From NCBI GenBank assembly GCA_045660065.1, contig JAZRDC010000030.1:35-64034 (forward strand): a DNA stretch of 64,000 nucleotides. Direction: 5' to 3'. The translations under genes were made by a program, and so were the position numbers. This DNA comes from Clostridia bacterium (GTDB lineage Bacteria > Bacillota > Clostridia > RGIG6154). How positions within the stretch are numbered: the stretch's first letter is position 1; each line of letters begins with the position of its first letter. The notes under the pieces were generated by a model. The model was given only the letters and a program-made list of their open reading frames with translations. It did not search any database and was not told where the DNA came from. Below, piece by piece: positions 20,418-50,018 of this stretch.

Positions 20418-20585
20418 AATTTAGCTTCGGGGCAGGGTGTAATTCCCTACCGGCGGTTAAAGCCCGCGAGCGCATTTGCGCTGATTTGGTGAAATTCCAG
20501 AGCCGACGGTATAGTCCGGATGATAGAAGCAGGTTTATATCATAAACTTTTTGCCCCTTTGCATTATAAGGGGCTTTTTTTGTCC
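20418..20585 (+). promoter_or_regulatory. FMN riboswitch (RFN element) with intrinsic terminator
   Basis: CTTCGGGGCAGGGTG.AATTCCCTACCGGCGGT...AGCCGACGGTATAGTCCGGATGATAGAAG matches the RFN consensus. Terminator GCCCCTT-tgcattat-AAGGGGC followed by a T-run sits immediately upstream of ribU. Confidence 0.85.
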
Positions 20586-20609
20586 CGAAAAATGAAAGGA
20601 CGATCAACT

Positions 20610-21152
20610 ATGAACAAAGAAAATTTAAGAAAACTTACGGCAATGGGAATGCTTTGCGCAATATCGGTGGTACTTGTGTGGCTTATTCATTTCCCGATTT
20701 TCCCTGCGGCTGCATTTTTGGAATATGACCCTGCAGATATCCCTATTTTTATAGGCGCATTTTCTTTCGGGCCTGTTGCGGGACTTATTTTAACAATCGT
20801 AACATCAATAATTCAGGGCACAACAGTTTCTGCCTCAAGCGGGGTTTACGGAATTATAATGCACATAATTTCAACAGGAAGTTTTTGCCTTACATCAGGA
20901 CTTGTTTATAAAAAAATCCGAACAAAAAAAGGCGCAGCAATTTCTTTGATTGTGGGAGTTTTAACAATGACACTTGTTATGATTCCTGCAAACCTTTTTA
21001 TAACACCATACTTTATGGGGGCGCCCGTTTCGGTAATAAAAGGACTGCTGCTTCCTGCAATTATCCCATTTAACTTCACAAAAGCCACAGTAAACTCGAT
21101 CATTACATTTTTCCTTTATAAAAGAATATCAAAACTGTGGGAAAGAAGATAA
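20610..21152 (+). CDS. ribU: ECF transporter S component for riboflavin (RibU)
   Basis: 180-aa protein with six predicted TM helices directly downstream of the FMN riboswitch. The start was trimmed from the ORF-track 20520, which would have translated through the riboswitch, to the Met with an RBS. Confidence 0.8.
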   Translation: MNKENLRKLTAMGMLCAISVVLVWLIHFPIFPAAAFLEYDPADIPIFIGAFSFGPVAGLILTIVTSIIQGTTVSASSGVYGIIMHIISTGSFCLTSGLVYKKIRTKKGAAISLIVGVLTMTLVMIPANLFITPYFMGAPVSVIKGLLLPAIIPFNFTKATVNSIITFFLYKRISKLWERR

Positions 21153-24109: not shown

Positions 24110-24140
24110 AAAAAGCAGTCAGTTGACTGCTTTTTTTCTG
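24110..24140. terminator. Bidirectional terminator between the hlyIII-like (+) and vanZ-like (-) genes
   Basis: aaaaaAGCAGTCAgttgACTGCTttttttt. Confidence 0.6.
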
Positions 24141-24637
24141 CTTATTAAACAAATTATAAAAACAACAATCAGAATTCCTGCGATGCTTCCTGACAGGTCG
24201 ATTAAAACATCTGTTACCTGACCACTTCTGCCGGGTACGAAAATCTGATGGACTTCGTCACTTATTGCATACAAAAGGCAAAAGACAAGTGAAATAAGAG
24301 CATCTTTTTGTATAAAATGGCTTCCTTTTTTAATAAATGTAAGGTTTGCACTTATAAAGGCACATATTCCTAAAATTGCAAACAGAGTAAAATGGGCGAT
24401 TTTTCTGATTGTTTTTTCCCATTTTTGCTCAAGTACTTTTTTCTTTTTTGCAGAAATTTTCTTGTTTTTGGTAACAGCATTTACGATTTTCTTTGTAATC
24501 CCGCTGCTTGTCTTTTTTGATTGGGTTGCAGGTTGAGCCGAAAAATAAAAAATTGATGCCATTGTAAGCAATGTGAAGAAATATGCTATTATTCTTTTTA
24601 CCCAAAGATTTGGTTTGGTTCCTGAAATCATAATCAA
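24119..24637 (-). CDS. VanZ-like family membrane protein
   Basis: ISDEVHQIFVPGRSGQVTDVLIDLSGSIAG is a VanZ-family signature. Confidence 0.7.
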   Translation of the reverse strand: MIMISGTKPNLWVKRIIAYFFTLLTMASIFYFSAQPATQSKKTSSGITKKIVNAVTKNKKISAKKKKVLEQKWEKTIRKIAHFTLFAILGICAFISANLTFIKKGSHFIQKDALISLVFCLLYAISDEVHQIFVPGRSGQVTDVLIDLSGSIAGILIVVFIICLISRKKAVN

Positions 24638-25268: not shown

Positions 25269-26732
25269 ATGGCAAGAAATAGAATTTCAAATCAGGAAAA
25301 TCCTGATATGGATAACGGAAAAACAACTGTAAAAGCAGAAAAAACTAAAGTGAAAAAAGCACCGTCTTTTATTTCAGTGCAGTTTGACAGACTTTCTTCC
25401 TATATAAAAAGAAACTCTGTTGCGGCAAAAAGTACAGTAATAGGATTTTTTGTATTTGCGGTAATTTTAGCAGTTGTTTCAAATGTAAAAATCGGATATG
25501 CGGTTGTGTTTAACAATAAAACAATCGGATATGTGGCGGGGAAGGATTTCGCCCGTGAAAAGATTGATAATATTTACGCTGAAATAACAGGTGCTGTTGA
25601 GGACGGCGCAGTTATTGATTTGTCAGCAGAACTTGTTCCTGCTTTTGCACCTAATTCAAAGTTTGTAAGAGATGAAGATGTTGAAAGCGTTATTAAAAGT
25701 CAACTTTCGTATTATGTTGACGGAACTTCGGTTTATGTTGATAACAAATTTGTTTTTGCGGCAAAAGATGAACAAGAGGCAAAAACAATTTTAGATGAAT
25801 ATCAGAAAAAAGTTTCAGGAAGCGGCAAAGTTATTTCTTCAGAATGTGAAAACGAAATTTCATTTAAGGAAGAAAAAGTTGTCTACACTCAGCTTCTTGA
25901 TAAAGAAGCCGCATTAAAAAGACTTGCGGGTACTGATTCAAAAGAAGGTCTTCATACAGTAGTCGAAGGGGATACCTTGTGGAGCATTGGTATTGACAAT
26001 GATATTGCTACAGACCATCTTATGAGTATGAATAATCTTGACAGTGAAATTCTCCAGATAGGAAAAGTTTTAAGAGTTAAAGAACCTGTGCCTTTGATGG
26101 ATATTAAGGTGGTTAAGGATATCACTTATACAGAATATCACCCTTATGAAACTGAAAAGATTTACGATAAGTCTTTAAATCAGGGAACATATAAGACTCA
26201 GCAAAAGGGCTCAAACGGTGAAACAAGAATAAGAGCCACAGTAACTTATGTAAACGATCACGAAATTGAGCGTGAAATTATAGAGAAAACTGTAATAAGC
26301 GAACCTGTTAACGAAATTTTGAGAGTAGGTACAAAGCCAAAACCGAAAACTGCGGCAACAGGAAGATTTGCAAGACCGATTTCGGGCGGATATGTTTCAT
26401 CATCTTTCGGCAACAGAAGCCGAGGATATCATACAGGTATTGACTGGGCGCTTTCATACGGCTCACCTATTTATGCGTCAGATGGCGGAACGGTTACATC
26501 GGCAGGCTGGGGCGGCGGTTACGGCAGAATGATTAAGATTAATCACGGTAACGGTTATGAAACTGTGTATGCTCATTGCTCAAAACTTGTTGTAAGCGCA
26601 GGTAAGAAAGTTGCAAAGGGACAAGTTATTGCTTATGTAGGAAGTACGGGTAACAGTACAGGTCCTCATCTGCATTTTGAAATAAGAAAAAATGGTTCTT
26701 ATCTGAACCCTGCTAAATATTGTGGTGAATAA
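25269..26732 (+). CDS. Membrane-anchored LysM-domain M23 metallopeptidase
   Basis: LysM segment (HTVVEGDTLWSIGI...LQIGKVLRV) and an M23 catalytic core (HTGIDWA...HLHFEI). Confidence 0.85.
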   Translation: MARNRISNQENPDMDNGKTTVKAEKTKVKKAPSFISVQFDRLSSYIKRNSVAAKSTVIGFFVFAVILAVVSNVKIGYAVVFNNKTIGYVAGKDFAREKIDNIYAEITGAVEDGAVIDLSAELVPAFAPNSKFVRDEDVESVIKSQLSYYVDGTSVYVDNKFVFAAKDEQEAKTILDEYQKKVSGSGKVISSECENEISFKEEKVVYTQLLDKEAALKRLAGTDSKEGLHTVVEGDTLWSIGIDNDIATDHLMSMNNLDSEILQIGKVLRVKEPVPLMDIKVVKDITYTEYHPYETEKIYDKSLNQGTYKTQQKGSNGETRIRATVTYVNDHEIEREIIEKTVISEPVNEILRVGTKPKPKTAATGRFARPISGGYVSSSFGNRSRGYHTGIDWALSYGSPIYASDGGTVTSAGWGGGYGRMIKINHGNGYETVYAHCSKLVVSAGKKVAKGQVIAYVGSTGNSTGPHLHFEIRKNGSYLNPAKYCGE

Positions 26733-26804
26733 CAAATCAGACAGCCTCTGTGGTATGTGGGGCTGTCTTGCGATATATTCTTGTAAAAAATATAAAAAAA
26801 TACT

Positions 26805-26832
26805 TGATTTTAGAAAATAAGTATGCTATAAT
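26805..26832 (+). promoter_or_regulatory. Sigma-A-type promoter of the RiPP-like operon
   Basis: TTGATT, a 16-nt spacer, then TATAAT. It lies just downstream of the M23 gene terminator (26745-26772). Confidence 0.55.
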
Positions 26833-26835
26833 CAT

Positions 26836-26870
26836 TGTACATAGGTATAACTATGTACTTTTATGTACCA
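26836..26870 (+). promoter_or_regulatory. Palindromic operator overlapping the transcription start (TGTACATAG-N6-CTATGTAC plus a third TATGTAC half-site)
   Basis: Inverted repeat with an 8 of 9 match, located 4-38 nt downstream of the -10 box. Confidence 0.5.
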
Positions 26871-26891
26871 ATTTTTTTAGAGGGTGAACAG

Positions 26892-27155
26892 ATGCGTCTT
26901 AAAGATGGTTTTTTGTTAAGAAAAGTTGCAGGTGAATTTGTTGTAGTTCCCACAGGGGATGCTATGGTGAACTTCAAGGCAATGATTACGCTTAACGAAA
27001 CCGGTGCTTTTTTGTGGGAAGCACTCAAAGAAGAAAAGACAGAAGATGACCTTGTTTCAGCACTCCTTGGTGAGTACGATGTGGACGAGGCAACTGCTAA
27101 AGAAGATGTAGGCGGATTTGTTAATCTTTTAAAAGAAAAGAATTTACTGGTATGA
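26892..27155 (+). CDS. PqqD-family RiPP recognition element (RRE), stand-alone
   Basis: 87 aa: MRLKDGFLLRKVAGEFVVVPTGDAMVNFKAMITLNETGAFLWEALKEEKTEDDLVSALLGEYDVDEATAKEDVGGFVNLL, the PqqD/RRE winged-helix signature. The start was trimmed to the Met with a GAGGGTG RBS. Confidence 0.8.
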   Translation: MRLKDGFLLRKVAGEFVVVPTGDAMVNFKAMITLNETGAFLWEALKEEKTEDDLVSALLGEYDVDEATAKEDVGGFVNLLKEKNLLV

Positions 27156-27604
27156 AAAAAGTTTTAAGTACAAAAGACCTTATGCCGCTTATAAGCGATA
27201 TTTTAAAAACTGCTGAGCGTGTAAGGTTTACAGTGAAGGGAAACAGTATGTATCCTTTAATCCGCGGCGGCCATGATGAGGTTGAAGTGGTTAAGTGCGA
27301 TAGTATCGGCAAGTACGATATTGTGCTTTATAAAAGAGCAAACGGAGCATATGTTCTTCACAGAGTCTTAAAAAAGCAAGACGGTGCTTTGTCAATAGCA
27401 GGAGATTTTGAACAGGAACTTGAACATCCTGTGTATGAAAATCAGGTTATTGCCAAGGTTGATAATATAATAAGAGCAAGCGGCAGAATTATTCCCTGCA
27501 GCAACAAGGTGTATAAATTATACTGTGTTGTATGGTCAGTGGCTCTTAAAAACAGACACAAGATACTTAAGGTGCTTAAAAAATTGAGGCGGTGGTGGCT
27601 TTGA
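27152..27604 (+). CDS. ER/archaeal-type (S26B, SipW/Sec11-like) signal-peptidase-like serine peptidase
   Basis: Box B GNSMYP, box C YDIVLY, box D VLHRVL (His in place of the P-type Lys) and box E AGDF. It has no N-terminal TM. Its ATG overlaps the PqqD stop (ATGA). Confidence 0.65.
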   Translation: MKKVLSTKDLMPLISDILKTAERVRFTVKGNSMYPLIRGGHDEVEVVKCDSIGKYDIVLYKRANGAYVLHRVLKKQDGALSIAGDFEQELEHPVYENQVIAKVDNIIRASGRIIPCSNKVYKLYCVVWSVALKNRHKILKVLKKLRRWWL

Positions 27605-29262
27605 AAAAAACAGACGTCGCTAAAAATTGGTTTTTTAAAAATATCTTAGATTTTGGCGGAGGGGTTTTTGTTCTCACCGCAATATCAATTCTGATAAATG
27701 TATCAGGTGTCGGATTTGCAATAGCATCTCAAAGACTTTTGGATGTTGCATCAAAGTCAATGAGCGGCAACTTGTTCAAAGAAGCAGGAATACTGGTTTT
27801 CTTAGTCGTGCTTCAACTTGTTTTGCAAATTATCCTCTCAAAGTGCTATGTTAAAACAAACGCACAGGTGAGAATTAAAATAAAAACAGACCTTTTCCGT
27901 GATGTTGTAAGAAAAGACCTTACAGAGGTTAATTGTTACCACTCGGGCGAACTGGTCAACAGGCTCTCTGCCGATGTTAATACCGTGGCAGGAGCGGTGG
28001 TGGATATTCTTCCTACGGCGCTTTCGCTGTCAATAGGAGTGGCGCTTAGTTTTATAGTTTTGTTTAAACTTGACCCGGTGTATGCCATTATTTATTTAAT
28101 AGTAGCACCTTTAGCACTCCTTACAGCAAGAATATTCAGAAGAAAACTTAAAGATCTGCATAAAGAGTCTGCTCAGTCAGACGGTAAAGTAAAAGCATTT
28201 ATGCAGGAATGTTTAAGAAATCTGTTGGTTGTGAAGGCTTTTCAGAAAGAAGAGCATATGACCGACAAGTGCAATGCTTATCAACTTGTTAACTACAAGG
28301 TTTTGATAAAGAAAAACAATGTAAGTATTTTGGCTAATGTAATGTTCTTTTTGTCCATTACTGCAGGATATTACTTAACATTGGTCTGGGGAGCGTATAA
28401 GCTTTCCATCGGACTTATGACTTTTGGTGAGATTGTGGCAATGCTTGAACTTGTTTCACAAATTCAATCGCCGCTTAAGTCATTGTCATCACTGTTTCCA
28501 CAGTATTATTCAGCACTGGCATCATCTGAAAGAATTTTAGAACTTGAAAGTTTGCCTGATGAATTAAAACTCAATCAAGGCGGGGCAAATGGATTTTCAA
28601 AACTTGTTATGGAAAATGTATCATTTGCTTATGATGATAAAAAAGTGTTTGAAAATGTATCCTGTGAAATAGAAAAAGGCGACATCATCGGAATTTGCGG
28701 TGAGTCGGGAATTGGAAAAAGCACTCTTATTAAACTCGTTTTAGGTGTGCTTACGCCGGATAGCGGCGAAATTTACATAAAAGACCAAAGTGGTCTTAAA
28801 GTATCGGTTGATACAGAAACGAGAAACATATTTTCATATGTGCCACAGGGCAACCTGATATTGTCCGGCACTATCGCAGAGAATGTGGTTTTCGGATCTG
28901 ACAACATAGATTTACAACTGGTTGAAAAAGTAATTCAGGTGTCGCAGCTTGATGAACTTATCAGTCAGTTACCGGCAAAACTTGATACTGTTTTGGGTGA
29001 AGGAGGCCTTGGGCTTTCGGAAGGACAGGTACAGCGATTATCTATCGCAAGGGCATTGTATCGGAATTCAGAAGTTCTGTTGCTTGATGAAGCAACATCG
29101 GCGCTTGACCGCGAAACTGAAATCAGGGTGTTGAAGGAAATCAGAGAAATGGGCAAAACATGTTTGTTCATTACTCACCGTTTGGAAGCACTTTCTAGTT
29201 GCAGCAAGCTACTAAGTGTAAAAGACGGGAAAGTTTCAATCGACAGGCAGGAAATTTTATAA
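27592..29262 (+). CDS. Fused ABC exporter (TMD-NBD) of the peptide/bacteriocin-export type
   Basis: Six TM helices, Walker A GESGIGKST, signature LSEGQVQRL and Walker B LLLDEATS. The start overlaps the upstream peptidase gene. Confidence 0.85.
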   Translation: MVALKKTDVAKNWFFKNILDFGGGVFVLTAISILINVSGVGFAIASQRLLDVASKSMSGNLFKEAGILVFLVVLQLVLQIILSKCYVKTNAQVRIKIKTDLFRDVVRKDLTEVNCYHSGELVNRLSADVNTVAGAVVDILPTALSLSIGVALSFIVLFKLDPVYAIIYLIVAPLALLTARIFRRKLKDLHKESAQSDGKVKAFMQECLRNLLVVKAFQKEEHMTDKCNAYQLVNYKVLIKKNNVSILANVMFFLSITAGYYLTLVWGAYKLSIGLMTFGEIVAMLELVSQIQSPLKSLSSLFPQYYSALASSERILELESLPDELKLNQGGANGFSKLVMENVSFAYDDKKVFENVSCEIEKGDIIGICGESGIGKSTLIKLVLGVLTPDSGEIYIKDQSGLKVSVDTETRNIFSYVPQGNLILSGTIAENVVFGSDNIDLQLVEKVIQVSQLDELISQLPAKLDTVLGEGGLGLSEGQVQRLSIARALYRNSEVLLLDEATSALDRETEIRVLKEIREMGKTCLFITHRLEALSSCSKLLSVKDGKVSIDRQEIL

Positions 29263-29284
29263 AGTTTGTTTGGGAGGAATAAAG

Positions 29285-30217
29285 ATGAAATGTAAGAGAA
29301 TTTTCAAAGTAGCGAGCGCGCTCGCATTGACTGTAGCTTTGTTAGTATCTTCAGCTGTTGTTTCATTTGCTGCAACTTATACAACAACAACTACTTATAT
29401 TGATCAGAATACTATCGAAGTTACATCAACTGCTGTTGGTCTCAACAAAGGCGATATGGCTACTTATGTTGCTTACAATAACGACGGCTTTACAGAAGGT
29501 AACGCAGTTTACATCGACCAGGCAACAGCAGACGAAACCGGAGAAGTTGAATTTAAATATCAGACAGATCTTGATGATTTAAAAGCAACTGTTAAATTCG
29601 GTGGTTCAACAGAAAGTGCAGCTCAGGATGCTATACTTGGCGGTTACAATGTTAACATTAAAGTTGACGGCGTAGATGCAGGTACAGTTAAAGTTGCAGA
29701 AGTAGCTGCAGAATACGAAGGTGATCTCGCAAGAGAAATCCCTGTTGAACTTGATGCAAGTAAAGTAGTTGATAAAGTTACAGTAAATGGCGCAGAAGTA
29801 GCTTGGTATGTTAAAGACAAAGCTGTAGTTATTTACTCTAATGCTATCAAGGCTGATGGTGCAACTGTTGAAATTGAAACAGCAGCTGCAAAAGCAGTTA
29901 CACTTGTTCTCGGTGCTGTTAAGTCAGAAGCTGCTAATACAGTTACTGCATTTGCTAAAGCAACATGCGGTGCGTATGCAAACTATGGTATCTTAATCGG
30001 TGGTAATGCTACTCTCACAGAAGAAGTAGTTAGCTGGGACGCAGCAGAAGATTATTCTAAAGCTGTTAAATTACCTGCACTTGGTATGAGCAAAGACGGT
30101 ATGTTCTGTGTTGAAGTTACAGACGAAGCTCTTGTAGCAGGTACAGAATACAAAGTTGCAGCTTATGCAGGCGAAGAAGTTACAGATGCAAAAGCAGTAA
30201 CAGTAAAAGTACAGTAA
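29285..30217 (+). CDS. Secreted Ala/Val/Thr-rich protein of unknown function (Sec signal peptide)
   Basis: MKCKRIFKVASALALTVALLVSSAVVSFA|ATYTTTTTY..., with a GGGAGGA RBS. No recognisable domain. Confidence 0.6.
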   Translation: MKCKRIFKVASALALTVALLVSSAVVSFAATYTTTTTYIDQNTIEVTSTAVGLNKGDMATYVAYNNDGFTEGNAVYIDQATADETGEVEFKYQTDLDDLKATVKFGGSTESAAQDAILGGYNVNIKVDGVDAGTVKVAEVAAEYEGDLAREIPVELDASKVVDKVTVNGAEVAWYVKDKAVVIYSNAIKADGATVEIETAAAKAVTLVLGAVKSEAANTVTAFAKATCGAYANYGILIGGNATLTEEVVSWDAAEDYSKAVKLPALGMSKDGMFCVEVTDEALVAGTEYKVAAYAGEEVTDAKAVTVKVQ

Positions 30218-30263
30218 TTAAGCGACTGTATCAATAACGATACAAATTCAGGAGGTAAATTCT

Positions 30264-30428
30264 ATGAAAAATTATCAGAAACCTGTTTTAGAGGTTGTTG
30301 AATTAGCAGTTGCTGAAAATATCGCTGCATTAGTACCTAAGACTATCTATAAAAGATCAGCAGGTGCTAAACTCGCTCAGCAGGGCGTAAAAATGTACGA
30401 CATGAAAGCTGACGAAATTATAAGCTAA
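30264..30428 (+). CDS. 54-aa precursor-like peptide with a lasso-type leader motif and a C-terminal Ser. It is not in the ORF track because it is under 60 aa.
   Basis: Strong RBS AGGAGGT 8 nt upstream. Translation: MKNYQKPVLEVVELAVAENIAALVPKTIYKRSAGAKLAQQGVKMYDMKADEIIS. The N-terminus matches the Firmicutes lasso-leader motif MK.Y.KP.LEV that is bound by PqqD RREs. The C-terminal part is cationic and amphipathic. Confidence 0.6.
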   Translation: MKNYQKPVLEVVELAVAENIAALVPKTIYKRSAGAKLAQQGVKMYDMKADEIIS

Positions 30429-30470
30429 TTTTTAGAACTGCAAAATTTAATTAAATAAAAATTTGAGAGG

Positions 30471-31361
30471 ATGTTCACTTTTATTATGCAATATACTGTC
30501 GCAGGTTTAAATATTGATATTATCAGTGAGCATCCTTCTTACATTTTTATGAGAATGAAAGACTATGAAAGCACTTTTTCGGGGGAAGCAGACTTTACAG
30601 TCAGGTGTAAAGAAAACAAAAATATCTCGCTCCCCGAGGATTTTGTGCAGATTGGTGAAAGAGTCGGCAGATGGCTCTGGATTAAAAAGAAGGATGGCAC
30701 ACTTGGTGCTTATATTAAATACTCAGACCTTGAGCAAATCGCAGCTTATGTAAGTTGGGACAAGGATTTTAAAAACATTGAACTTGAGGTTTTGGATTTA
30801 GAACCTTTCGGTGGAATGGCAATAGAACAAAGAATGTTTTATTTGCTCGGTGATGTTTTTACTTACACAGTTTTAAGCCGCGGCGCAGGAGTTTTTCATT
30901 CCTCTGCTATCAGTTATAAGAGCAGCGGAATTTTGTTGTCTGCACCGTCGGGTACGGGTAAATCAACCCACGCAGAACTCTGGAAGACGGTTTATGGGGA
31001 AGATGTTATTCATTTTAACGACGATACCCCCGTACTTAAAGTAGAAAATAATACAGTTTATGCCTACGGTACTCCGTGGAGCGGAAAAACTGCTATAAAT
31101 AAAAATATAAAAGTGCCCCTTAAGGCGATTATAAGCCTTGACAGGGCACAGGAAAACTCGGTAAAAAGACTTATGGGATTAGACGCTTTTTACAGAGTGT
31201 TCAACGAATTCAGGAAGCCCCCTGAGGGTGGACTTTTAGATAATTGTTTAGCACTTATTGAAAATGTTTTGGATAAAGTTCCTGTTTATGAACTTTTGTG
31301 CAACAAAGACCAGAGTGCAGCAATTACACTTCACAAAGCATTAGGCTTTGACAAAAATTAA
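30471..31361 (+). CDS. HPr kinase/phosphorylase C-terminal-domain-like Ser kinase (RiPP tailoring kinase)
   Basis: P-loop LLSAPSGTGKST at ~aa 160, 296 aa. This family occurs as the precursor C-terminal Ser kinase in Firmicutes lasso clusters. The exact start is uncertain (30471 or 30486). Confidence 0.65.
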   Translation: MFTFIMQYTVAGLNIDIISEHPSYIFMRMKDYESTFSGEADFTVRCKENKNISLPEDFVQIGERVGRWLWIKKKDGTLGAYIKYSDLEQIAAYVSWDKDFKNIELEVLDLEPFGGMAIEQRMFYLLGDVFTYTVLSRGAGVFHSSAISYKSSGILLSAPSGTGKSTHAELWKTVYGEDVIHFNDDTPVLKVENNTVYAYGTPWSGKTAINKNIKVPLKAIISLDRAQENSVKRLMGLDAFYRVFNEFRKPPEGGLLDNCLALIENVLDKVPVYELLCNKDQSAAITLHKALGFDKN

Positions 31362-31378
31362 TATTAAGGGTGAAATAT

Positions 31379-32989
31379 ATGAAAAAGAAACTGTTTTTTG
31401 GTGCGGTTATCACAACCGTTCTTTGCACAAGTCTGACTTTTTCAGCATTTGCTGCTAAATTTTCAGACCTGTCAGACAGCCATTGGGCTTACAAAAATAT
31501 TATGGAATTAAACTCACAGGGCGTAATTAACGGCTACTCTGACGGAACATTTCGTCCTGAGGCTCAGGTTACAAGAGCGGAGTTTGTAAAATTAATTGGA
31601 ACAACCAACGAAAAAAAATCAGAGGATTTCGCAGATCTTCCAAAAACTCACTGGGCATATGAATATGTTATGAACTCAGGGGTTGATATGGAAAGAAGAA
31701 ATTTCCGTCCTGATGAAAATATTACAAGAGCAGAAGTTTTAGACATTCTCTGGAATAGATACGGAACTGAAACAGATGCTGTTGTTCCCGGAATTATTGC
31801 AAATCAGCACGAAGAAATAAATGCCATCGCCTGGGGCTATTCATACGGTCTTATGATTGGTGATGACGGCATAAATTTAAGATTATCTGACGATTTGTCA
31901 AGAGCAGAAGCAGTAACACTTATCCTTCGTTCAAGAAAAATCGACACAACTAATCAGAAACTTTTAGCAGATAATGTAGCAGACAATCTTTTGAAAGATT
32001 TGTTCAATTCAACAGGGATTTTTGACTCTCAGTACAACGAAAACGCTACAATGACTATCGGTGAAATTTCAAGAGCGGCACTTAGAATTGCTCACGGAAC
32101 ACATTCGATTCTTTACAACAAAGATATGTATGTGGAAACTCCAAATTACGAAGATGAATATGCAAACGATGTTGCATATATGGCAAAGCAGATTTTCGGT
32201 GAAAGCAACAATAATAAAGAATATGCAACAAAAGCGGCAAATCAGCAGGAAGTAATCTCTGCTCTTATGTACGGCTATATGTTCAAAGCGAACGAATCTC
32301 CTGTTATCGGCAGAGTTGACGATTACTACAAAGATGCAACAGTTGACAAAAAGGAACTTATGAAAAATATGCTCCTTACTTATACAAAACGCAGAGGTGT
32401 GTTCTCAAGCGCCGATGGACTTTTACATAATGACAAACCTGTAACACACAAAGAAATTGCATCAATTCTTTTGCAACTTGACAATCTTACAGGCTCACAG
32501 ATGAGTTACTCAGGCGGCAAAGAGCAGGATGAAAAATTATCATTAAATGCGGCTTTATACCAAAAAGCAGATGGGGATTTCAAAACACTGCTTAAAGGAA
32601 TGCCTGAAGTAGTTTACACAACACCGATTGAAGGCTCTGCAACTGAATTTTTAACATTCTCAAAGGACTTTTTTGAAATATTTGCAACTCTTTCTGACGG
32701 TATTGTGAACAAAGCCAAAGTAAAGGGCGCAGAAATTGCAATCAGAGTTTATCCTACACTTGTATCAAATGCGGGAAACGAAGTAATTATGAGATCAAAG
32801 GTTTACATTGTTTCAAATCCGAACGGATTGGGACTTGGCGAAATCATTGGCAAGTGCGATATGGCAAATGATGTTACCGCCCGTGAAAACGGAACATACA
32901 TTGTTGATATCTCAACCAACGGACCGCTTGATGATATGTATATAAACCCTGCAAACGCAAGTTTAAGACGCGTTATCTGGAACGACTAA
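31379..32989 (+). CDS. SLH-domain (S-layer homology) cell-surface protein
   Basis: Signal peptide, then triplicated SLH motifs (FSDLSDSHWAYKNIMEL..., FADLPKTHWAYEYVM...). Confidence 0.8.
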   Translation: MKKKLFFGAVITTVLCTSLTFSAFAAKFSDLSDSHWAYKNIMELNSQGVINGYSDGTFRPEAQVTRAEFVKLIGTTNEKKSEDFADLPKTHWAYEYVMNSGVDMERRNFRPDENITRAEVLDILWNRYGTETDAVVPGIIANQHEEINAIAWGYSYGLMIGDDGINLRLSDDLSRAEAVTLILRSRKIDTTNQKLLADNVADNLLKDLFNSTGIFDSQYNENATMTIGEISRAALRIAHGTHSILYNKDMYVETPNYEDEYANDVAYMAKQIFGESNNNKEYATKAANQQEVISALMYGYMFKANESPVIGRVDDYYKDATVDKKELMKNMLLTYTKRRGVFSSADGLLHNDKPVTHKEIASILLQLDNLTGSQMSYSGGKEQDEKLSLNAALYQKADGDFKTLLKGMPEVVYTTPIEGSATEFLTFSKDFFEIFATLSDGIVNKAKVKGAEIAIRVYPTLVSNAGNEVIMRSKVYIVSNPNGLGLGEIIGKCDMANDVTARENGTYIVDISTNGPLDDMYINPANASLRRVIWND

Positions 32990-33024
32990 GTTAAACATAT
33001 TCTTGAGGAAAGGAAACATATACA

Positions 33025-33717
33025 ATGGAAGAAAGAGAAATTGATATATTTGAACTTATACAAGCGGTCTTTAAAAGATGGTGGCTGGTGCTTGTAATTA
33101 CAATAGTAATGGGTAGCGTAGGTTTTGGGTATTCAAAATTTGCAATAACTCCTCTTTACTCTGCAAAGGGTACACTTTATATCACTATCGATAACACAGC
33201 AGCGGCTCAGGGCGGAACAAGTCTTGACTACAACTCGATTCTTGCAGCGCAGGAACTTACAAACACATATTCACTTATCTTGTCAAGTAACACATTTTAT
33301 AAAATAGTTGCTGCCGAAAGCGGACTTGACTATTCATACAAAGATATTTCTAAAATGGTTACAATGGGTAACGAAAACGAAAGTGAAATTATGAGCATTG
33401 TTGCAAGTTGTCCAAACAGAGAACATGCGGCAATAATCGTTGAAACAATCTTAAACAACGCACAGGCAGAAATTTCCCGCGTTGTTGTTGGCGGAAGCGT
33501 AAGGATTATCGATCATCCTGAACTTCCAAACGGTCATTCTTATCCAAATGTTACTAAAAACACATTCCTTATGTTGATTTTAGGATTTATTTTAGGATGT
33601 GCTTTAGCAATTTTCATTGAATGGCTTGACGATACAATCAAAGACGGTGATGATGTCATGAAATTTGATATTCCTGTATTAGCGGAAATTCCACTTTTAG
33701 AAGTTAAAAGTGAATAA
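33025..33717 (+). CDS. Wzz/CpsC/YwqC-like polysaccharide co-polymerase (chain-length determinant). Orphan: no BY-kinase partner is nearby.
   Basis: N- and C-terminal TM helices with a periplasmic Wzz-like segment, and N-terminus FELIQAVFKRWWLVLVITIVMG. Confidence 0.7.
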   Translation: MEEREIDIFELIQAVFKRWWLVLVITIVMGSVGFGYSKFAITPLYSAKGTLYITIDNTAAAQGGTSLDYNSILAAQELTNTYSLILSSNTFYKIVAAESGLDYSYKDISKMVTMGNENESEIMSIVASCPNREHAAIIVETILNNAQAEISRVVVGGSVRIIDHPELPNGHSYPNVTKNTFLMLILGFILGCALAIFIEWLDDTIKDGDDVMKFDIPVLAEIPLLEVKSE

Positions 33718-33737
33718 GATAGAAAGGATGAATTTGG

Positions 33738-36700
33738 ATGAGGAAGTGTATTAGAGCGCTTATCAGCCTGGTGCTGGCGTTGGTGATGATTACGCCGGTT
33801 GCCTTGCCTGTTGCGGCGGACAGTTCTTATGGGTTTATTGATTTCCCAACGGGCTGGTCTGCTCCGGCAATGGCTCATGCCGTTGCAAACGGAATAATTT
33901 ACGGAAAAACTGAAAATACTATCGCTCCGGGAGACAATCTTACAAGAGCGGAAATGGGCACGATTATCAATCGTGCTTTTGGTGCTACTATAGGAAAGGA
34001 TATTTCAGCCTTTTCTGATGTGTCAGCATCTGCGTGGTATTACGAAGAAATCAAAAAATCTTATAATATGCAGACTATGTACGGTGATGAGGGCGGAACT
34101 ATGCGTCCTGATGCGCCGATCATAAGAGAAGAAGCCATAGCTATCGTTGCAAGAGCTATGGTTTTAAGTGGTTATTCAGCATCTGAACTTAATAAGTTCA
34201 ATGACAAGGCTGAAGTTGCAGGTTGGGCTGTTGATCCTGTTGCATCAATGGTAGCAAACGGTTATGTAAACGGCGATGACAAGTCAAACCTTAACCCTAA
34301 GGCATATATCACAAGAGAAGAATTTGCACAGCTTATTTACAACATCATTAAGCATTACTATAACAAAGACGCTAAAAGCGAAAGTTATCAGGGTAATTTA
34401 ATGCTCAACAAACCTGATATTTCTCTTGAAAATATCACAGTTAACGGCGACCTTATTTTAGGCGACGGCGTTGGTACAAGCAAAATTACACTTACAAATA
34501 TCGATATCAAAGGCAGACTTTTAGTAAGAGGTGCTGCTCAGATAACACTCAAAAATGTTACAACTGCAAAAGGCGTTGTTGTGAAAAATGTTAACGGAAC
34601 AGTTCATTTTGACAACTATCGTGATGAAAAAGTTTTCGACGGAGTAGTTGAACATACAACCGTAACCTATAAACAGCGCGCTACCGGCGGTGGCGGCGGT
34701 GGAGGTGGTGGAGGTGGAACACCTCCTGCTCCTACAACCGCAGGTTACAAGGTTGAACACTATCAGGAAGCATTAGACGGCAGTTTTGTGATTTTTGAAA
34801 CTGATGTTCTTTCAGGTACAGTAAATTCAAGCGTTACTGCTGTTGCTAAAGCATACGAAGGCTTTGCAGAAGATGCAACCAATGCATCAAGAGTACCAAC
34901 AGGTATTGTTGCGACAGACGGCACACTTGTACTCAAACTTTACTACACAAGAAACAGTTATAATATCGTGTATAACTTGGGCGAAGCAGGCACAGATGTT
35001 GTGTTGAGCCTTAAATACGGTGCAAATGTAAGCCTTGAAGCACCAACAGTTACAGCCCCTGCTGGTAAATACTTTGCAGGTTGGTTTGACGCGCCCGTTG
35101 GCGGAAATCAGATTATATCATTAACAGTTCCTGCAAACGGAACAACAATTTATGCGCAGTGGTCAACAACTCCACCTGCAGTTGTGAATTTTACCGTTGA
35201 ACACTACAAAGAAAATGTTGACGGTACGTATTCTTCACCTGCAGAGACTGAAACACTGTCAGCAACTGTGGCAACTGTTGTAAAAGCGCAGGATTATGAT
35301 AAAACATACACAGATTTTGATGTAGATCTGACAGCAAGTGTGGACGTTGCAGTAGCAGCAGACGGAAGCACAGTTCTTAAAATTTACTATACAAGAAAAA
35401 GTTATAACATCGTATATAACTTTGGTGAAGCAGGTGGAAGCACTACAGTAAGCCTTAAATTTGAGGCTGATGTTGACCTTTCAACTCCTGCGGTTACAGC
35501 CCCTGCAGGCAAATACTTTGCAGGTTGGTTTGATGCACCTGTTGGCGGAAATCTTATTACAACATTAACAGTGCCATCAGGCGGAACAACAATTTACGCG
35601 CAGTGGTCAACAACTCCAACTACTATTGTAAACTTCACAGTTAAGCACCATCAGCAGAACATTTTGGATGATTTGTACCCTGCAAATCCATTTGAAACAG
35701 AGACAAAATCCATTGCGGCAGGCAGTACTGTAAAAGCACAGGATTATGCAAAGACTTACACAGGATTTACTGCTGATTTAGCAAACAGCCCTGATGTAAC
35801 AGTTGCAGCAGATGGAAGCACAGTTCTTAACATTTACTATGTGAGAAATACTTATACTATCACATACAACTACGGTGAAGCAGGCGGAGAAGGTTCTGTA
35901 ACACTTAAATACGGTGCGGCAGTAGATCTTTCAGCGCCACCGGTTGTTGCACCTTCAGGCAAAACCTTTGCAGGTTGGTTTGACGCGCCTGTTGGCGGAA
36001 ACCAGATTACAGATTTAACTGTTCCTGAAAACGGAAAAACAATATACGCACAGTGGTCAGATATTTCACCTGTAAACTTTACTGTAAGACACTTCCAGCA
36101 GAATATTGAAGACGATTTGTATCCTTCAATAGCATTTGAAGAAGAAACAAAATCTGCAATTCCGGGTTTTGTTGCAAAGGCTCAGGATTATGCTAAGGCA
36201 TACACAGACTTTACTGCTGTTTTAGCAAACAGCCCTGATGTAACAGTTGAGGCAAATGGAAGCACAATCCTTAATATTTACTATACAAGAAATACTTATA
36301 CTATCACATACAACTATGGTGAAGCAGGCGGAGAAGGTTCAGTAACACTTAAATTCGGCGCAGATGTAGACCTTTCAGCACCGGCAGTTACTGCACCTGC
36401 AGGCAAATACTTTGCAGGTTGGTTTGACGCACCTGTTGGCGGAACACAGATTGGCTCATTGACAATGCCATCAGGCGGTGCAACAATCTATGCACAGTGG
36501 TCAGATATCCCACCTGTAAACTTTACTGTAAGACACTTCCAGCAGAATATTGAAGATGATTTGTATCCTTCAATAGCATTTGAAGAAGAAACAAAATCTG
36601 CAATTCCGGGCGCTACTGTATCAGCAGCTAGGTTTGATAAATCTTACGCAGGATTTACTGCAGATTTAATAAACAGTCCTGATGTAACAGTTGAGGCAAA

Positions 36701-39700
36701 TGGAAGCACAATCCTTAACATTTACTACACAAGAAACACTTATACTATCACATACAACTATGGTGAAGCAGGCGGTGAAGGTTCAGTAACACTTAAATAC
36801 GGTGCGGCAGTAGACCTTTCAGCACCGGCAGTTACTGCACCTGCAGACAAAACATTTGCAGGCTGGTTTGATGCACCTGTTGGTGGCAATCAGGTTTCAT
36901 CTTTGACAGTTCCTGTAAACGGAAAAACAATATACGCACAGTGGTCAGACATTCCACCTGTAAACTTTACTGTAAGACACTTCCAGCAGAATATCGAAGA
37001 CGATTTGTACCCTTCAGTAGCATTTGAAGAAGAAACAAAATCTGCAATTCCAGGTCATACAGTAAGAGCGATTGACTTTGCTAAAACATATGAAGGCTTT
37101 GCTACTGATTTAGCAAACAGTCCTGATGTAACAGTTGAGGCAAACGGAAATACAGTTCTTAACATTTATTATGTAAGAAACACTTATACTATCACATATA
37201 ACTATGGTGAAGCAGGCGGAGAAGGTTCTGTAACACTTAAATACGGTGCGGCAATAGATCTTTCAGCACCGACAGTTACTGCACCTGCAGGCAAATACTT
37301 TGCAGGTTGGTATGATGCACCTGTTGGTGGAAATCAGGTTTCATCTTTGACAGTTCCTGTAAACGGCACAACAATTTATGCACAGTGGTCAGATAATCCT
37401 ACATATATGGTTTACCACTATAAAGCAGATTTAGACGGAAATTATCCTGACAACTTGCTTGTTATTTCTACAATACCTGCAGAGTATGGTGCACAAATTA
37501 CAGCAACTCCTGGCAATTTTGAAGGGTTCCATGAAAACACAACACATCCTGACAGAGTAACAAGCGGTATAAACGATGGTACACTTGTACTTAAACTTTT
37601 CTACGACAGAAACACATATACTGTTTCATTTGACGCAGGTCAGGGAACTGCTGTTTCAGATGTAGAGTACAAATACGAACAGCCATTTGGCAGTGTTGTA
37701 TCAACAAGAGAGTACTACATTTTAGATGGTTGGTACAAAGACTTGAATGACCCTGCATCAAAGGTAGAAGACTACCATAAAGCAGGTAGAGAATTTACAG
37801 GCGGTACTTTGTACGCTAAATGGGAAATCGACAGAGCTGCAATCGGCGATGTTGTATTTACTGCAAGTGTTACAGATGAAGACCTTGATAACGACGAATT
37901 CTCAATTTTGGTTGATTTATCAAACAACTTAATTGGTATTTCTGAGTACGGACTTACTCTTAACTGGGATAACACCCAGGTTAAACCGATTTTGGTTGGC
38001 GGTAAAGTTGTTACTGACTTAAATGGTCTTGGCGGAAATGCTATTACAACATCAGCAGATTCTGTTACAACAGAAGATGGTGCGGCTGCGCTCAGTTCTG
38101 TTACAGTAAACTGGAACAGTGTTGCACCTGTAGCAGGAAATGCAAATCTTTTCAAAGTAAGATTTAAAATTACAAATACTTTGGCAGATAAAGACCACGA
38201 AACTCCATCTTTGAATATGTTCAGAATGATGAGAGCGGCGAATATTGATGGTCTTATGGACTTACCATTTACAATTACAAGCGTATCTGTTTCAATTATC
38301 TCTGAAACAGGGGAAGTAATTCCTCTTGATAATTCAACTAAAGATACAGGCCTTGCACCTTACAAAATTGAACATTACAAAGAAAACACAGAAGATACTG
38401 CATATTCTTTGGCATATACAGAGTATGGCCACGATATTGTAGGCAAAGTTGTGTTTATCAGTGAAGGTAAGGCTGAATATATAGCAGAAGGATTTATATA
38501 CGAAGAAGGAAAGTCAGCAAACAAGATAGTTATTACAGAATCAGGTGCTGTAATTAAACTTTATTACGCAAGACCTCGTTTTGATGTAGAATTTGACTAT
38601 CAGGGGGCTACAAGAGTTGAAGGTCCTGCATCTGTAAGCCTTAAACTTGGTGCAACAATTAAAAATCATTTTCCTGAAGAAAATTCATTTGCAAAAGATG
38701 ACTATAACTTCGGCGGTTGGTTCACCCAGCCTGAAGGTAAAGGTCAGAACGCAGGAGATGGACTCGTTGTTCCTAAAGGCGGTATAAAACTTTATGCTAA
38801 CTGGGTTCAGACACCATATAAAGTTGAACACTATCAGATGGCATTAGATGGCGTTAACGCTAAACTTGTTGCAACTGATACAGGTTACGCAAAAGCAGGA
38901 ACAACAGTTACTGCAACTGCAAAAACTTATTTAGGTTTTGATGCTCCATCTGTAATGCCAAGTGAAAAAGTTGCAGCAGACGGTTCAACAGTTATCAAAG
39001 TTTACTACACAAGAAAAACATACACCATCAACTATAACTTTGACGGTGGTACAGCAGTAGGTGCTTATGAAACAACATTCAAGTATGGTCAGTCTATTCC
39101 TTTGGCAAAAGCCGAAAAAGAAGAAGACGATGTAGAATATCAGTTGATAGGATGGCGTGCAAATTCTGAAACCGGTCCTGTTGTAACCAATACTTCAAAT
39201 ATTGACCATATTTTAAGAACACTTACAGATGATGTTTTGAATCTTTACGCATGGTGGGTTCCGGTTACAGCAAGTACTTCAAAATATGTTGTAGAACACT
39301 ATAAAGAAGAATTGGACGGAACTTATCCTGAAGCGGCAACAGAAACAACTGAAGTGCAGTCAATTCAGATTCCTGCTACACTTAAAGTTTCTGAACTTAA
39401 AAAACCATACGAAGGATTTACAGTAGACGAAGCAAAGAGCAAAGATTTACCAATCACAGAAGAAGGATTCTTTACTCTTAAGATTTATTACACAAGAAAT
39501 GAATATACATTGAATTACGATTATTGCGATGCAGATGTATCAGGTGTTGCAAGTAACAAATTCAAGTATGGTCAGACAATTACACTTCCTGAAGAAGGAA
39601 CATACAGCAAGGAAGGATTTATCCCGACAGGTTGGTATAAGACAGATGTTTACATACCATCAAGCCTTGTTGACGAATCAACAAAGATTGAAGAAATTGT

Positions 39701-48738: not shown

Positions 48739-48814
48739 CAGAAATTGTACTGATAGTATATAATTATTCATAATTTTGTTTACTTTTTGAATTTGTTGTG
48801 GTATACTATATTTG

Positions 48815-49430
48815 TAAAAATAGGTGGCGCAGTATTCTAGTCAGATTTTTTCATTCCCAGGACGGGCCTAAAAATCCGTTGAAGGGCACATCGATGAAGT
48901 TTCTGGTGCCGGCTTTCGACGCCCAGTCGAGGGTTGGTGCTGGGAGTTAAGGATTAAGGGCGGTCGGCAATGGCATGCAGAATTCGACCCTTCTTCCGTG
49001 GAGACCTATACTTGTGGTGTATCTGCTGCGTGCTCTGTGAAGGGCCGGCGGAAAAACTACGACTTAGGATTAAACCTGCTTTGCGGTTAAATTTTTAGCT
49101 GTGGGCAGAGTAGCCTGCCTTGAGCGGGTGTGGTGGATTGTAAGATCAGGCGTTTTTTGGTCGGCCAACTGAAAAACACTATTGCTTCATGAAACCTCAT
49201 TTGCAAAAGAGGCTAAGATTGATTAAATCTGTAGAGGAAATCTCCTAGGCTGTTGGAAACAGATATGCAAAGGATTAGAGTGCGGACTAAGTGGCAATCG
49301 GGTACGAAACTGAGCGATCGTTTCGGCCGTGCTTTAAAGGGAAACCGCCCACATCGGCGACGAGTGAGCAGCATAGCGGGAAAACCAACCCGACCTAAGC
49401 CGTAAATTTTACTTTGTGTATTGCCCCTTT
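48815..49430 (+). ncRNA. OLE (ornate, large, extremophilic) RNA. The call rests on genomic context; the boundaries are approximate.
   Basis: A ~600-nt GC-rich, ORF-free, hairpin-dense segment in an AT-rich genome. It is preceded by an extended -10 promoter (tggTATACT) and followed by a small 4-TM protein gene and then dxs-tlyA-nadK-argR-recN. This is the conserved OLE/oapA neighbourhood. Confidence 0.65.
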
Positions 49431-49457
49431 ATTTACATTTTTTAGGAGTGTAGTAAT

Positions 49458-50018
49458 TTGAAGAAAAAGATTAAATTTAAATCAGGAAAAAAGAAAATAA
49501 GTATAAAATATGTACTCACAATTTCTTTTACCACACTTGTAATTGCCATTTTAATGAAAACCATAAGCGATGCTTTGCTTGAAAATATTATAATGGCATA
49601 CAGTTACTTTATATTGCTTGGAATAATATTGATAGGTATTATTTTCGATATTGTAGGCGTTGCGGTTACATCCTGCGATGAAACAAAGTTCCACGCAATG
49701 GCATCTGACAAGGTTTATGGTGCAAAAGAAAGCATTATGCTTATAAAAAATGCAGAAAAAGTTTCAAGCATCTGTAACGACGTTATAGGCGACGTGTGCG
49801 GAATTATAAGCGGTGCGGTGTCAAGTTGGATTGTGGTGCAACTTGCAGTTGGCGGGATAAGTGCGGGAGAAGATTTTCTTGCCCTTGGTATGACAGGGGT
49901 AGTTTCTGCTCTTACCGTTGGCGGAAAAGCACTGGGGAAATTTGCCGCAATTAATTTAAACAGTAATATTGTATATTTAGCAGGAAAAATTATAAGATTT
50001 TTCAAGTTTAAAAAATAG
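49458..50018 (+). CDS. oapA: OLE-associated membrane protein OapA-like (4 TM)
   Basis: 186 aa with four predicted TM helices, a TTG start with an AGGAG RBS, and a position between the ncRNA and dxs. Confidence 0.55.
   Translation: MKKKIKFKSGKKKISIKYVLTISFTTLVIAILMKTISDALLENIIMAYSYFILLGIILIGIIFDIVGVAVTSCDETKFHAMASDKVYGAKESIMLIKNAEKVSSICNDVIGDVCGIISGAVSSWIVVQLAVGGISAGEDFLALGMTGVVSALTVGGKALGKFAAINLNSNIVYLAGKIIRFFKFKK

Follow-up and report, generated by a model that had tools for sequence, protein, structure and literature searches.

A clostridial operon probably encoding a peptide pathway related to the Linear Polyphosphorylated Peptides of Bacilli

We identified a six-gene operon in a 64,000-nucleotide stretch of DNA from a Clostridia bacterium (contig JAZRDC010000030.1; the whole stretch is referred to here as the window) that probably encodes a clostridial lineage of a ribosomally produced, post-translationally modified peptide (RiPP) pathway similar to that of the Linear Polyphosphorylated Peptides (LPP). 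The six open reading frames (ORFs) all lie on the forward strand, span positions 26892-31361, and encode in order a PqqD-type RiPP recognition element (RRE), an S26B-like peptidase, an MsbA-like ABC exporter, a secreted protein, a precursor peptide and a PF27840 'ScmC' enzyme (Table 1). The LPP family was described in Bacilli in May 2026 (Popov et al., Nat Commun; PMC13381572). An initial annotation of this DNA had read the operon as a previously undescribed class, a claim overtaken by that publication, whose supplementary table includes the clostridial branch. The mechanism it proposed, a linear peptide that is presented by an RRE, cleaved by a signal peptidase I-like (SpI-like) enzyme and phosphorylated on Ser, has been shown experimentally in the homologous LPP system. 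Judged by sequence comparison, the window appears to belong to a clostridial sister group to LPP, an uncharacterised variant of the published class.

The LPP core genes encode an SpI-like peptidase (LppS), a discrete RRE (LppB), an HprK-like kinase (LppK), an MsbA-like exporter (LppD) and an NTP_transf_5 protein (LppN), and the reference cluster is lppA-K-B-S-D-N of Paenibacillus alginolyticus (PMC13381572). Precursors are 35-200 aa long with a YxxPxVLxHQxIxFETxxS leader and variable C-termini. LppK polyphosphorylates Ser3 of the core and does not accept Thr or Tyr at that position. LppS cuts behind T-1 and requires presentation of the substrate by LppB; the S29A, H68A and D93A variants are each inactive, and deletion of lppS abolishes processing. 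The clusters sit in capsule loci with VanZ. On the biological role of the peptides, the authors speculate about biofilm or capsule (PMC13381572). The LppS, LppB and LppA sequences used below were taken from Supplementary Data 1 of that paper.

Table 1. Features of the peptide operon and of the envelope genes that flank it.
Feature	Position	Strand	Evidence or remark
Discrete PqqD-type RRE, LppB analogue	26892..27155	+	PF05402, E=4.5e-20
S26B-like (SpI-like) Ser/His leader peptidase, 150 aa, LppS homologue	27152..27604	+	hhalign and BLASTP to LppS
MsbA-like ABC exporter, fused permease and ATPase, LppD analogue	27592..29262	+	PF00664 and PF00005; best NCBIfam TIGR02203 MsbA, E=9e-73
Secreted protein, 315 aa: signal peptide, ATYTTTTTY motif, three FN3/Ig-like beta-sandwich domains	29270..30217	+	
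Precursor peptide, 54 aa	30264..30428	+	AGGAGG Shine-Dalgarno 7 nt upstream
PF27840 'ScmC' P-loop enzyme, 296 aa, PEPCK/HprK fold, LppK homologue, putative peptide kinase	30471..31361	+	
Promoter-like site, TTGATT-17 nt-TATAAT with TG extension	26804..26832	+	best sigma-70-like match within 26600-33800, 10/12 positions
Palindrome, 22 bp, GTACATAGGTA/TAACTATGTAC	26837..26858	.	just 3' of the -10 element; inverted repeat 91% complementary, no spacer
SLH-domain surface protein	31370..32989	+	PF00395, E=2.5e-24
Wzz-type polysaccharide chain-length determinant	33025..33717	+	PF02706 in the orthologues of L001 and L005
VanZ-family gene, 2.2 kb upstream of the operon	24119..24637	-	PF04892, E=3e-24

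The six co-oriented genes lie where the initial annotation had put them, and the overlaps behind the translational coupling that it proposed for the first three are present: an ATGA overlap joins the PqqD stop to the peptidase start, and all candidate starts of the ABC gene (27592-27601) precede the peptidase stop at 27604. Both hexamers of the promoter-like site are kept in a relative of 70% identity (L005). Conservation of the palindrome in the same locus is limited to its centre, TAGGTATAAC; it is a possible operator. The 3' end of the operon had been set at 31361. However, the SLH gene begins 8 nt further on and we found no terminator between it and the ScmC gene, so the transcription unit probably extends past this point; the SLH gene is followed by Wzz and then by a 3661-aa SLH protein.

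Using the window proteins we fetched 86 related loci (L001-L086). A scan with the ScmC alignment, taking one genome per species, identified 80 loci, all in Bacillota and nearly all in metagenome-assembled genomes of Clostridia, with Ruminiclostridium cellobioparum as the sole isolate; we called the ORFs of these loci and searched them with hidden Markov models (HMMs) built from the window proteins. The order PqqD, S24-like peptidase, ABC exporter, secreted protein, peptide, ScmC, SLH, Wzz is found again in L001, L005, L007, L008, L011 and L012, whose ScmC proteins are 35-70% identical to that of the window, except that the ABC gene is missing from L001 and the peptidase gene from L011. The gene set thus co-occurs in other genomes, and because its order recurs in relatives the block is not a chance arrangement. 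Of the loci that extend for 4 kb or more on each side of ScmC, 46 in number, 32 have PqqD, 30 an S24-like peptidase, 25 an ABC exporter and seven an NTP_transf_5-like gene. The commonest clostridial order is ScmC, PqqD, S24, ABC, sometimes followed by the NTP_transf_5-like gene, which is also the order of the Paenibacillus lpp locus. The relatives are labelled Clostridia, Oscillospiraceae or Congzhengia.

The peptidase family aligns with LppS at an hhalign probability of 98.8% (E=1.2e-16), and BLASTP gives 26% identity to LppS (E about 3e-9 to 3e-8). Fifty family members share the invariant residues G30-x-S32-M33-x-P35, L69-H70-R71, G84-D85 and E91, of which S32, H70 and E91 align with the catalytic S29, H68 and D93 of LppS, the last with Glu in place of Asp. 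A search of PDB sequences with the family profile returned a single weak match, Staphylococcus aureus SpsB (E=0.12), in which H70 falls at the position of the catalytic Lys. Histidine in place of lysine as the general base is a hallmark of the ER- and archaeal-type (S26B) enzymes. The initial assignment to an ER-type S26B signal-peptidase-like protease is therefore retained, with the addition that the enzyme is predicted to be soluble and cytoplasmic: no transmembrane segment was found (the top Kyte-Doolittle score over 19 residues is 0.97), and none of the 50 family members has a hydrophobic stretch of sufficient length for an anchor. At the level of profile libraries the S26 call found only weak, sub-threshold matches (TIGR02228, archaeal-type signal peptidase I, 2.7e-7, 30.6 bits against a cut-off of 51.85; PF00717, 0.06). 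Assignment to the LexA/UmuD-type S24 enzymes was considered and rejected, given the His rather than Lys at the general-base position and the homology to LppS. A tblastn search of LppS against plasmids found no match.

In the sequence similarity network (SSN) of the LPP study, the closest matches of the window peptidase are members of cluster 4 from Dehalobacter and Anaerocolumna (BLASTP 8e-34 and 2e-32, 38-41% identity compared with 26% to LppS); a second member of cluster 1 matches at 4e-8. Cluster 1 is joined to Bacilli LppS by edges of E<1e-23, and the window peptidase lies outside it. Cluster 4 appears in the supplement only and is unanalysed there; its RREs are labelled 'others' and no LPP precursor is listed for it (PMC13381572).

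The ScmC enzyme provides a second connection to LPP. All but two of its 120 listed homologues carry PF27840, and over 1000 proteins belong to the family at E<=0.001, the majority of them from Clostridia of the gut and rumen. In hhalign comparisons the family matches LppK with a probability of 97.6% (E=3.3e-12) and the lasso kinase with 89% (E=2e-6); the window protein is 26% identical to LppK. A phmmer search with Paenibacillus LppK recovered 82 ScmC ORFs in 82 loci, while the lasso kinase recovered 15. LppK is itself a PF27840 protein, because the kinase gene of the Paenibacillus lpp locus is PF27840:ScmC: the locus of a 97%-identical Paenibacillus LppS homologue consists of a 72-aa precursor, ScmC (261 aa), PqqD, SpI, ABC and NTP_transf_5, and a lasso set with a PF07475 kinase adjoins it. 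The 'HprK kinase' group of the LPP study is composed of matches to TIGR04249, TIGR04352 and TIGR04355 (PMC13381572), and these models weakly match the window ScmC or its relatives.

The initial annotation had called this protein HPr-kinase-like, which applies to its fold and not to its Pfam family: there is no match to PF07475 (Hpr_kinase_C) at E<0.1. A search of PDB sequences with the ScmC profile gave nothing significant, only P-loop noise from ABC transporters, and we therefore turned to fold comparison. An AlphaFold2 model (pLDDT 93.7) superposes on two groups of structures, and according to this model the enzyme has the P-loop kinase fold of HprK and PEPCK, its Walker A being intact. Across 20 aligned members there are an invariant Walker A (FSAPSGTGKSTH), an NDD motif and a GTPWSGK motif. 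Since the Walker A and NDD are invariant in the clade of the window, ScmC is probably catalytically active. Matches in NCBIfam are weak (TIGR04249, ScmC, 2.7e-6; HprK_rel_B, 3e-3), and searches of the literature for 'ScmC' and 'SynChlorMet' found nothing relevant.

The RRE and the exporter fit the same scheme. The RRE is 33% identical to LppB over 45 aa (E=2e-6), and its N35, D72 and F76 align with N33, D70 and F74, the LppB leader contacts that hold YxxP. It is 51% identical to a Dehalobacter 'other RRE' from SSN cluster 4, within a range of 45-51% for that cluster. The exporter has no C39 peptidase domain, as its ABC_membrane match starts at residue 26 of 556. The profile matches of both proteins agree with the initial calls, and together with the LppS and LppK homologies they bear out the recognition of an RRE, a leader protease, a dedicated exporter and a kinase as RiPP components.

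The precursor ORF matches no known family. Its leader, MKNYQKPVLEVVELAVAEN, is of the YxxPxL type (Y4, P7, L9), and its core is predicted from the sequence to begin near residues 20-22. A leader HMM finds a single copy in the window, which is this precursor, and a metagenome scan with the peptide alignment added only four loci. The small ORF is kept in 11 distinct window-type relatives at the same genomic position, always directly upstream of ScmC, with a conserved N-terminus and a variable C-terminus. The leader consensus of this clade is M-K-x-Y-x-K-P-x-[LVM]-E-V-x-E-L-x-x-x-E-N-I-A. The cores are free of Cys and contain a conserved T-x-Y (T27-x-Y29 in the window), in contexts such as PKTIYK, IKTLYEK, NTTTYNLG and DTTVYKG. 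A Ser ends about half of the 11 peptides, so the C-terminal Ser position is not conserved. Phosphorylation of this Ser, as proposed in the initial annotation, is thus not upheld, and the LPP acceptor is core Ser3 rather than the C-terminus.

By analogy with LPP, the discrete RRE would bind the 54-aa precursor through the Y4-x-x-P7-x-L9 leader, and the ScmC enzyme would use ATP on the core, most probably for phosphorylation. Because the LPP acceptor Ser is absent here, T27 and Y29 of the T-x-Y are the best candidate acceptors, although this is a tentative assignment. The soluble Ser32/His70/Glu91 peptidase would then remove the leader from the substrate presented by the RRE, the cut falling after approximately Asn19 if the YxxP spacing is followed or after Ala21 if the conserved small residue is the guide. 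The MsbA-like transporter would export the linear product.

Several observations weigh against an LPP-like pathway. For both the peptidase and the RRE, identity to the uncharacterised SSN cluster 4 (38-51%) is well above that to LppS and LppB (26-33%), and the library HMM scores of the peptidase and kinase are all below curated cut-offs. No LppN is found: PF14907 matches none of the scanned window ORFs of at least 150 aa, and phmmer with Paenibacillus LppN finds nothing in the window. The overlap of the leader with that of LPP is limited to YxxPx[LV]. When the two are anchored on YxxP, the FETxxS box (F-E-T-A-Q-S in LppA) is opposite A17-E18-N19-I20-A21-A22, with only the Glu in common. There is no Ser at the +18/+19 acceptor position, where LPP has one, and the window cores have the T-x-Y; since LppK rejected Thr and Tyr as substitutes for Ser3, phosphorylation is not assured. 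The LPP-like reading does not account for the secreted protein. In L003 the genes for the secreted protein, peptide and ScmC stand without any RRE, peptidase or ABC gene within 8 kb. Finally, the best PDB matches of the RRE are the lasso B1 proteins TbiB1 (1e-5) and PbaB1 (2e-4), ahead of LppB.

This last result bears on the possibility that the operon is part of a split lasso cluster, with the precursor cyclised by a cyclase and B2 peptidase encoded elsewhere in the genome. Lasso RREs also use the YxxPxL motif, and more than half of the Bacilli genomes with an lpp cluster encode lasso enzymes as well (PMC13381572). The initial annotation described the leader as the exact lasso motif. The motif is present; however, it is a general PqqD-RRE motif common to LPP and to relatives with radical S-adenosylmethionine (rSAM) enzymes, and since the same leader precedes Cys-rich cores in the latter it is not lasso-specific. 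Our Pfam scans covered almost every ORF of at least 150 aa across the 64 kb. Five ORFs fall outside them: HlyIII, Wzz and the giant SLH protein, all three assigned by synteny, and an ABC pair at 58573-62201. No Asn synthase (PF00733), Transglut_core3 (PF13471), radical SAM, YcaO or NTP_transf_5 gene was found among the scanned ORFs, in agreement with the earlier statement that the operon is without a cyclase, B2, radical-SAM or YcaO enzyme; they are housekeeping and envelope genes only (dcw cluster, glycogen operon, ECF transporter, VanZ, FHA, M23, SLH, SecDF, dxs and others). A Paenibacillus lasso cyclase query also finds nothing in the window. Among the 86 related loci there is no B2 homologue and a single Asn-synthase-like ORF (L056 3056-5041, E=2.8e-8 to the Paenibacillus cyclase), which lies upstream of an rSAM-type cassette. 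Moreover, the operon has its own leader peptidase, homologous to an LppS that works without a cyclase, its kinase is nearer to LppK than to the lasso kinase, and the precursor shows no combination of a penultimate leader Thr, a core starting with Gly or Ala and an Asp or Glu at core positions 7-9 in any obvious register. A split lasso cluster is therefore extremely unlikely. Given the lack of B2 homologues and the single Asn-synthase-like ORF in the related loci, neither a lasso partnership nor the earlier suggestion of descent from a paeninodin-type lasso cluster is supported. Among relatives with a class-defining enzyme, the nearest ones have a ScmE-like radical-SAM/SPASM protein. A survey of rumen lasso peptides (PMC7533575) provides context.

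These rSAM-type relatives consist of four cassettes (L019 7494-13120, L026 7827-13069, L034 8098-13240 and L056 8169-13019), arranged as PqqD, ScmE-like rSAM/SPASM, two to three Cys-rich precursor genes, ScmC, S24-like peptidase and ABC, often with NTP_transf_5, a gene present in L019, L026, L034, L051 and L066. The best NCBIfam match of the rSAM protein is ScmE (E=1e-31, 110 bits against a cut-off of 400). The precursors share the leader of the window (MKxYxKPxFExxELxxEERxA), followed by Cys-rich cores (…EERLAGSCxxxxGSC…). These cassettes, which PMC13381572 does not mention, appear to combine the RiPP logic of the LPP and thioether types.

It can be asked whether the window operon is an rSAM (SynChlorMet/ScmE-type) thioether cluster that has lost its rSAM gene, with a peptide that is only cleaved and exported as an unmodified signalling or surface-active product and with ScmC as a non-kinase scaffold or chaperone. 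The shared leader and the ScmE-like enzyme of these relatives are consistent with such a loss, as are window-type peptides that lack Cys and also the Ser found after the conserved Ala of the rSAM type, and ScmC was originally defined in rSAM cassettes as a protein of unknown function (TIGR04249). However, the invariant Walker A and NDD of the window clade point to an active enzyme, the homologous LppK is a proven kinase, and only four of the 46 loci contain an rSAM gene. In a rough neighbour-joining tree the window falls in a coherent clade separate from the rSAM clade, with the direction of change unreadable. We consider loss of an rSAM gene unlikely.

A third type of precursor (F/YxxPE[IF]x[VI]xxFxxE[DA][VI][IM]xxS) occurs in a few loci upstream of short ScmC genes of about 240 aa (L051 9521-9640, L072 657-1003 and L078 8491-8643), and its FE…S box is nearer to the LPP FETxxS than the window leader is. 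In most ScmC-PqqD-S24-ABC loci (L013, L014, L018, L020-L025, L027 and many others) no precursor was found within about 1.5 kb by the leader HMM, by clustering of small ORFs or by a YxxP regular expression. Their precursors may be encoded at other sites, or may have diverged too far to be recognised.

The secreted protein, with a likely start at 29285, is conserved in the window-type clade only and matches no library family. Its model (pLDDT 78.6) has three FN3/Ig-like sandwiches and no catalytic hint; an enzymatic function was considered and rejected because only such sandwiches are seen. Directly past the predicted signal peptide is A-T-Y-T-T-x-T-x-Y (29285-29320; residues 35-43), which is near-invariant in relatives and could be a glycosylation or processing site. 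Orthologues of the SLH protein (E 1e-123 to 1e-234) are found directly 3' of ScmC in L001, L005, L007, L008, L010, L011, L012 and L016, and with a family HMM Wzz adjoins the SLH gene in seven window-type loci. L003 and L004 (4175-8867) have Wzz, a CpsD-like gene and CpsB followed by the genes for the secreted FN3-like protein, the peptide and ScmC, and PqqD, peptidase and ABC genes are absent within 8 kb, so the trio of secreted protein, peptide and ScmC is separable from the RRE, peptidase and exporter genes. The VanZ gene upstream of the operon is possibly associated with it; VanZ is present in six of the 46 clostridial loci and co-occurs with 31 of 126 LPP clusters of Bacilli (PMC13381572).

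The conserved linkage to envelope genes could alternatively mean that the operon is not a RiPP pathway, and that the peptidase, ABC transporter and P-loop protein mature and export the FN3-like and SLH proteins or control polysaccharide chain length, with the small ORF as an accessory or regulatory element. In the clade of the window the linkage to the secreted protein, SLH and Wzz is tight, envelope genes (SLH, Wzz, CpsD, CpsB, VanZ) are within 5 kb in 18 of the 46 loci, the L003 trio directly follows Wzz, CpsD and CpsB with neither RRE nor peptidase, and most ScmC-PqqD-S24-ABC loci have no recognisable precursor nearby. However, the peptidase is unanchored and therefore cannot act on the trans side, and the secreted and SLH proteins carry ordinary Sec signal peptides. 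The pairing of a PqqD RRE with a YxxP leader peptide is a signature specific to RiPPs, and a peptide of this kind is processed in the homologous system. We regard a role outside RiPP biosynthesis as very unlikely.

For the LPP-like pathway, co-transcription and conservation with the FN3-like protein, SLH and Wzz suggest that the peptide probably acts at the cell surface or in the polysaccharide layer and not as a classical bacteriocin. A more specific possibility, which we put forward as a speculative one, is that the operon represents a distinct clostridial RiPP family in which the LPP machinery is reused on a peptide free of Cys and of the Ser acceptor. ScmC would modify the T-x-Y, by Thr/Tyr phosphorylation or phosphate-linked conjugation, and the product would work with the FN3-like protein, SLH and Wzz in the surface or polysaccharide layer. 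If true, this would give the first functional handle on the purpose of LPP-type peptides, and the compact operon lends itself to testing the link between peptide and envelope. The clostridial branch carries the paradigm of RiPPs with SpI-like peptidases beyond Bacilli. The same machinery occurs in three settings: with surface-layer and chain-length genes and a secreted protein, with rSAM enzymes and Cys-rich cores, and alone without a nearby precursor. This suggests that the ScmC/LppK enzymes form a tailoring module of general use in RiPPs, common to phosphopeptide and thioether pathways.

Additional features were observed elsewhere in the window. The 3661-aa SLH-anchored protein (33738-44723, +) is made up of many repeats, each about 200 aa long (FAGWFDAPVGGNQ units), and has a long acidic helical C-terminal region; it is followed by an SLH+Flg_new protein and then SecD/SecF, all oriented like the peptide operon. 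A full-length OLE (Ornate Large Extremophilic) RNA (RF01071, 503.6 bits) is located at 48808-49443 (+), and a 186-aa ORF without a Pfam match (49458-50018) lies between it and dxs. An FMN riboswitch (RF00050, 119 bits) at 20419-20535 (+) is directly 5' of an ECF riboflavin-type S component (20520-21152).

Several known systems share parts of the operon. Paeninodin-type lasso clusters (padeA-C-B1-B2-D-K) have a discrete RRE for [Y/W]xxPxL, a kinase of HprK fold and an ABC exporter, and are frequent in exopolysaccharide loci, as in the window. However, the window has neither the Asn-synthetase-like cyclase nor the transglutaminase-like B2 peptidase; its kinase is of PF27840 and not PF07475, and its leader protease is a serine enzyme of S26 type. 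The SynChlorMet (SCM) and GeoRSP cassettes (TIGR04248-04251, TIGR04302/04303/04355) pair a ScmC/HprK-related P-loop protein with a PqqD-family chaperone, as the window does. A full SCM cassette comprises ScmC, ScmD and two rSAM/SPASM proteins (ScmE, ScmF), whereas the window is without an rSAM enzyme and its precursor contains no Cys, and scores against the SCM models are far below the equivalog cut-offs (TIGR04249, 26.9 of 125 bits; TIGR04248, 18 of 100 bits). The S26B signal peptidases SipW and Sec11 and the NiSOD maturation protease SodX share with the window peptidase the GxSMxP Ser motif, the His of the HR box and the GD box, and they remove N-terminal propeptides, as the window enzyme is predicted to do. 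Unlike SipW and Sec11, the window peptidase appears to be unanchored and cytoplasmic and, from its homology to LppS, would depend on the RRE rather than act as a general secretory peptidase.

The LPP systems differ from the window in several respects. The host of the window is in Clostridia and not Bacilli, its peptidase belongs to the unanalysed SSN cluster 4 instead of cluster 1 and has Glu rather than Asp as the third catalytic residue, its genes follow a permuted order (B-S-D-X-A-K), the window has additional conserved genes for secreted FN3-like, SLH and Wzz proteins, and clostridial relatives carry a ScmE-like radical-SAM enzyme with Cys-rich cores. However, LPP clusters and the window operon both encode a discrete PqqD RRE, a soluble SpI-like Ser/His peptidase, a PF27840 kinase and an MsbA-like exporter. 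In both, the gene directly upstream of the kinase encodes a precursor whose leader is of the YxxPx[L/V] type and whose C-terminus varies, no cyclase is present, and envelope polysaccharide loci with VanZ are nearby.

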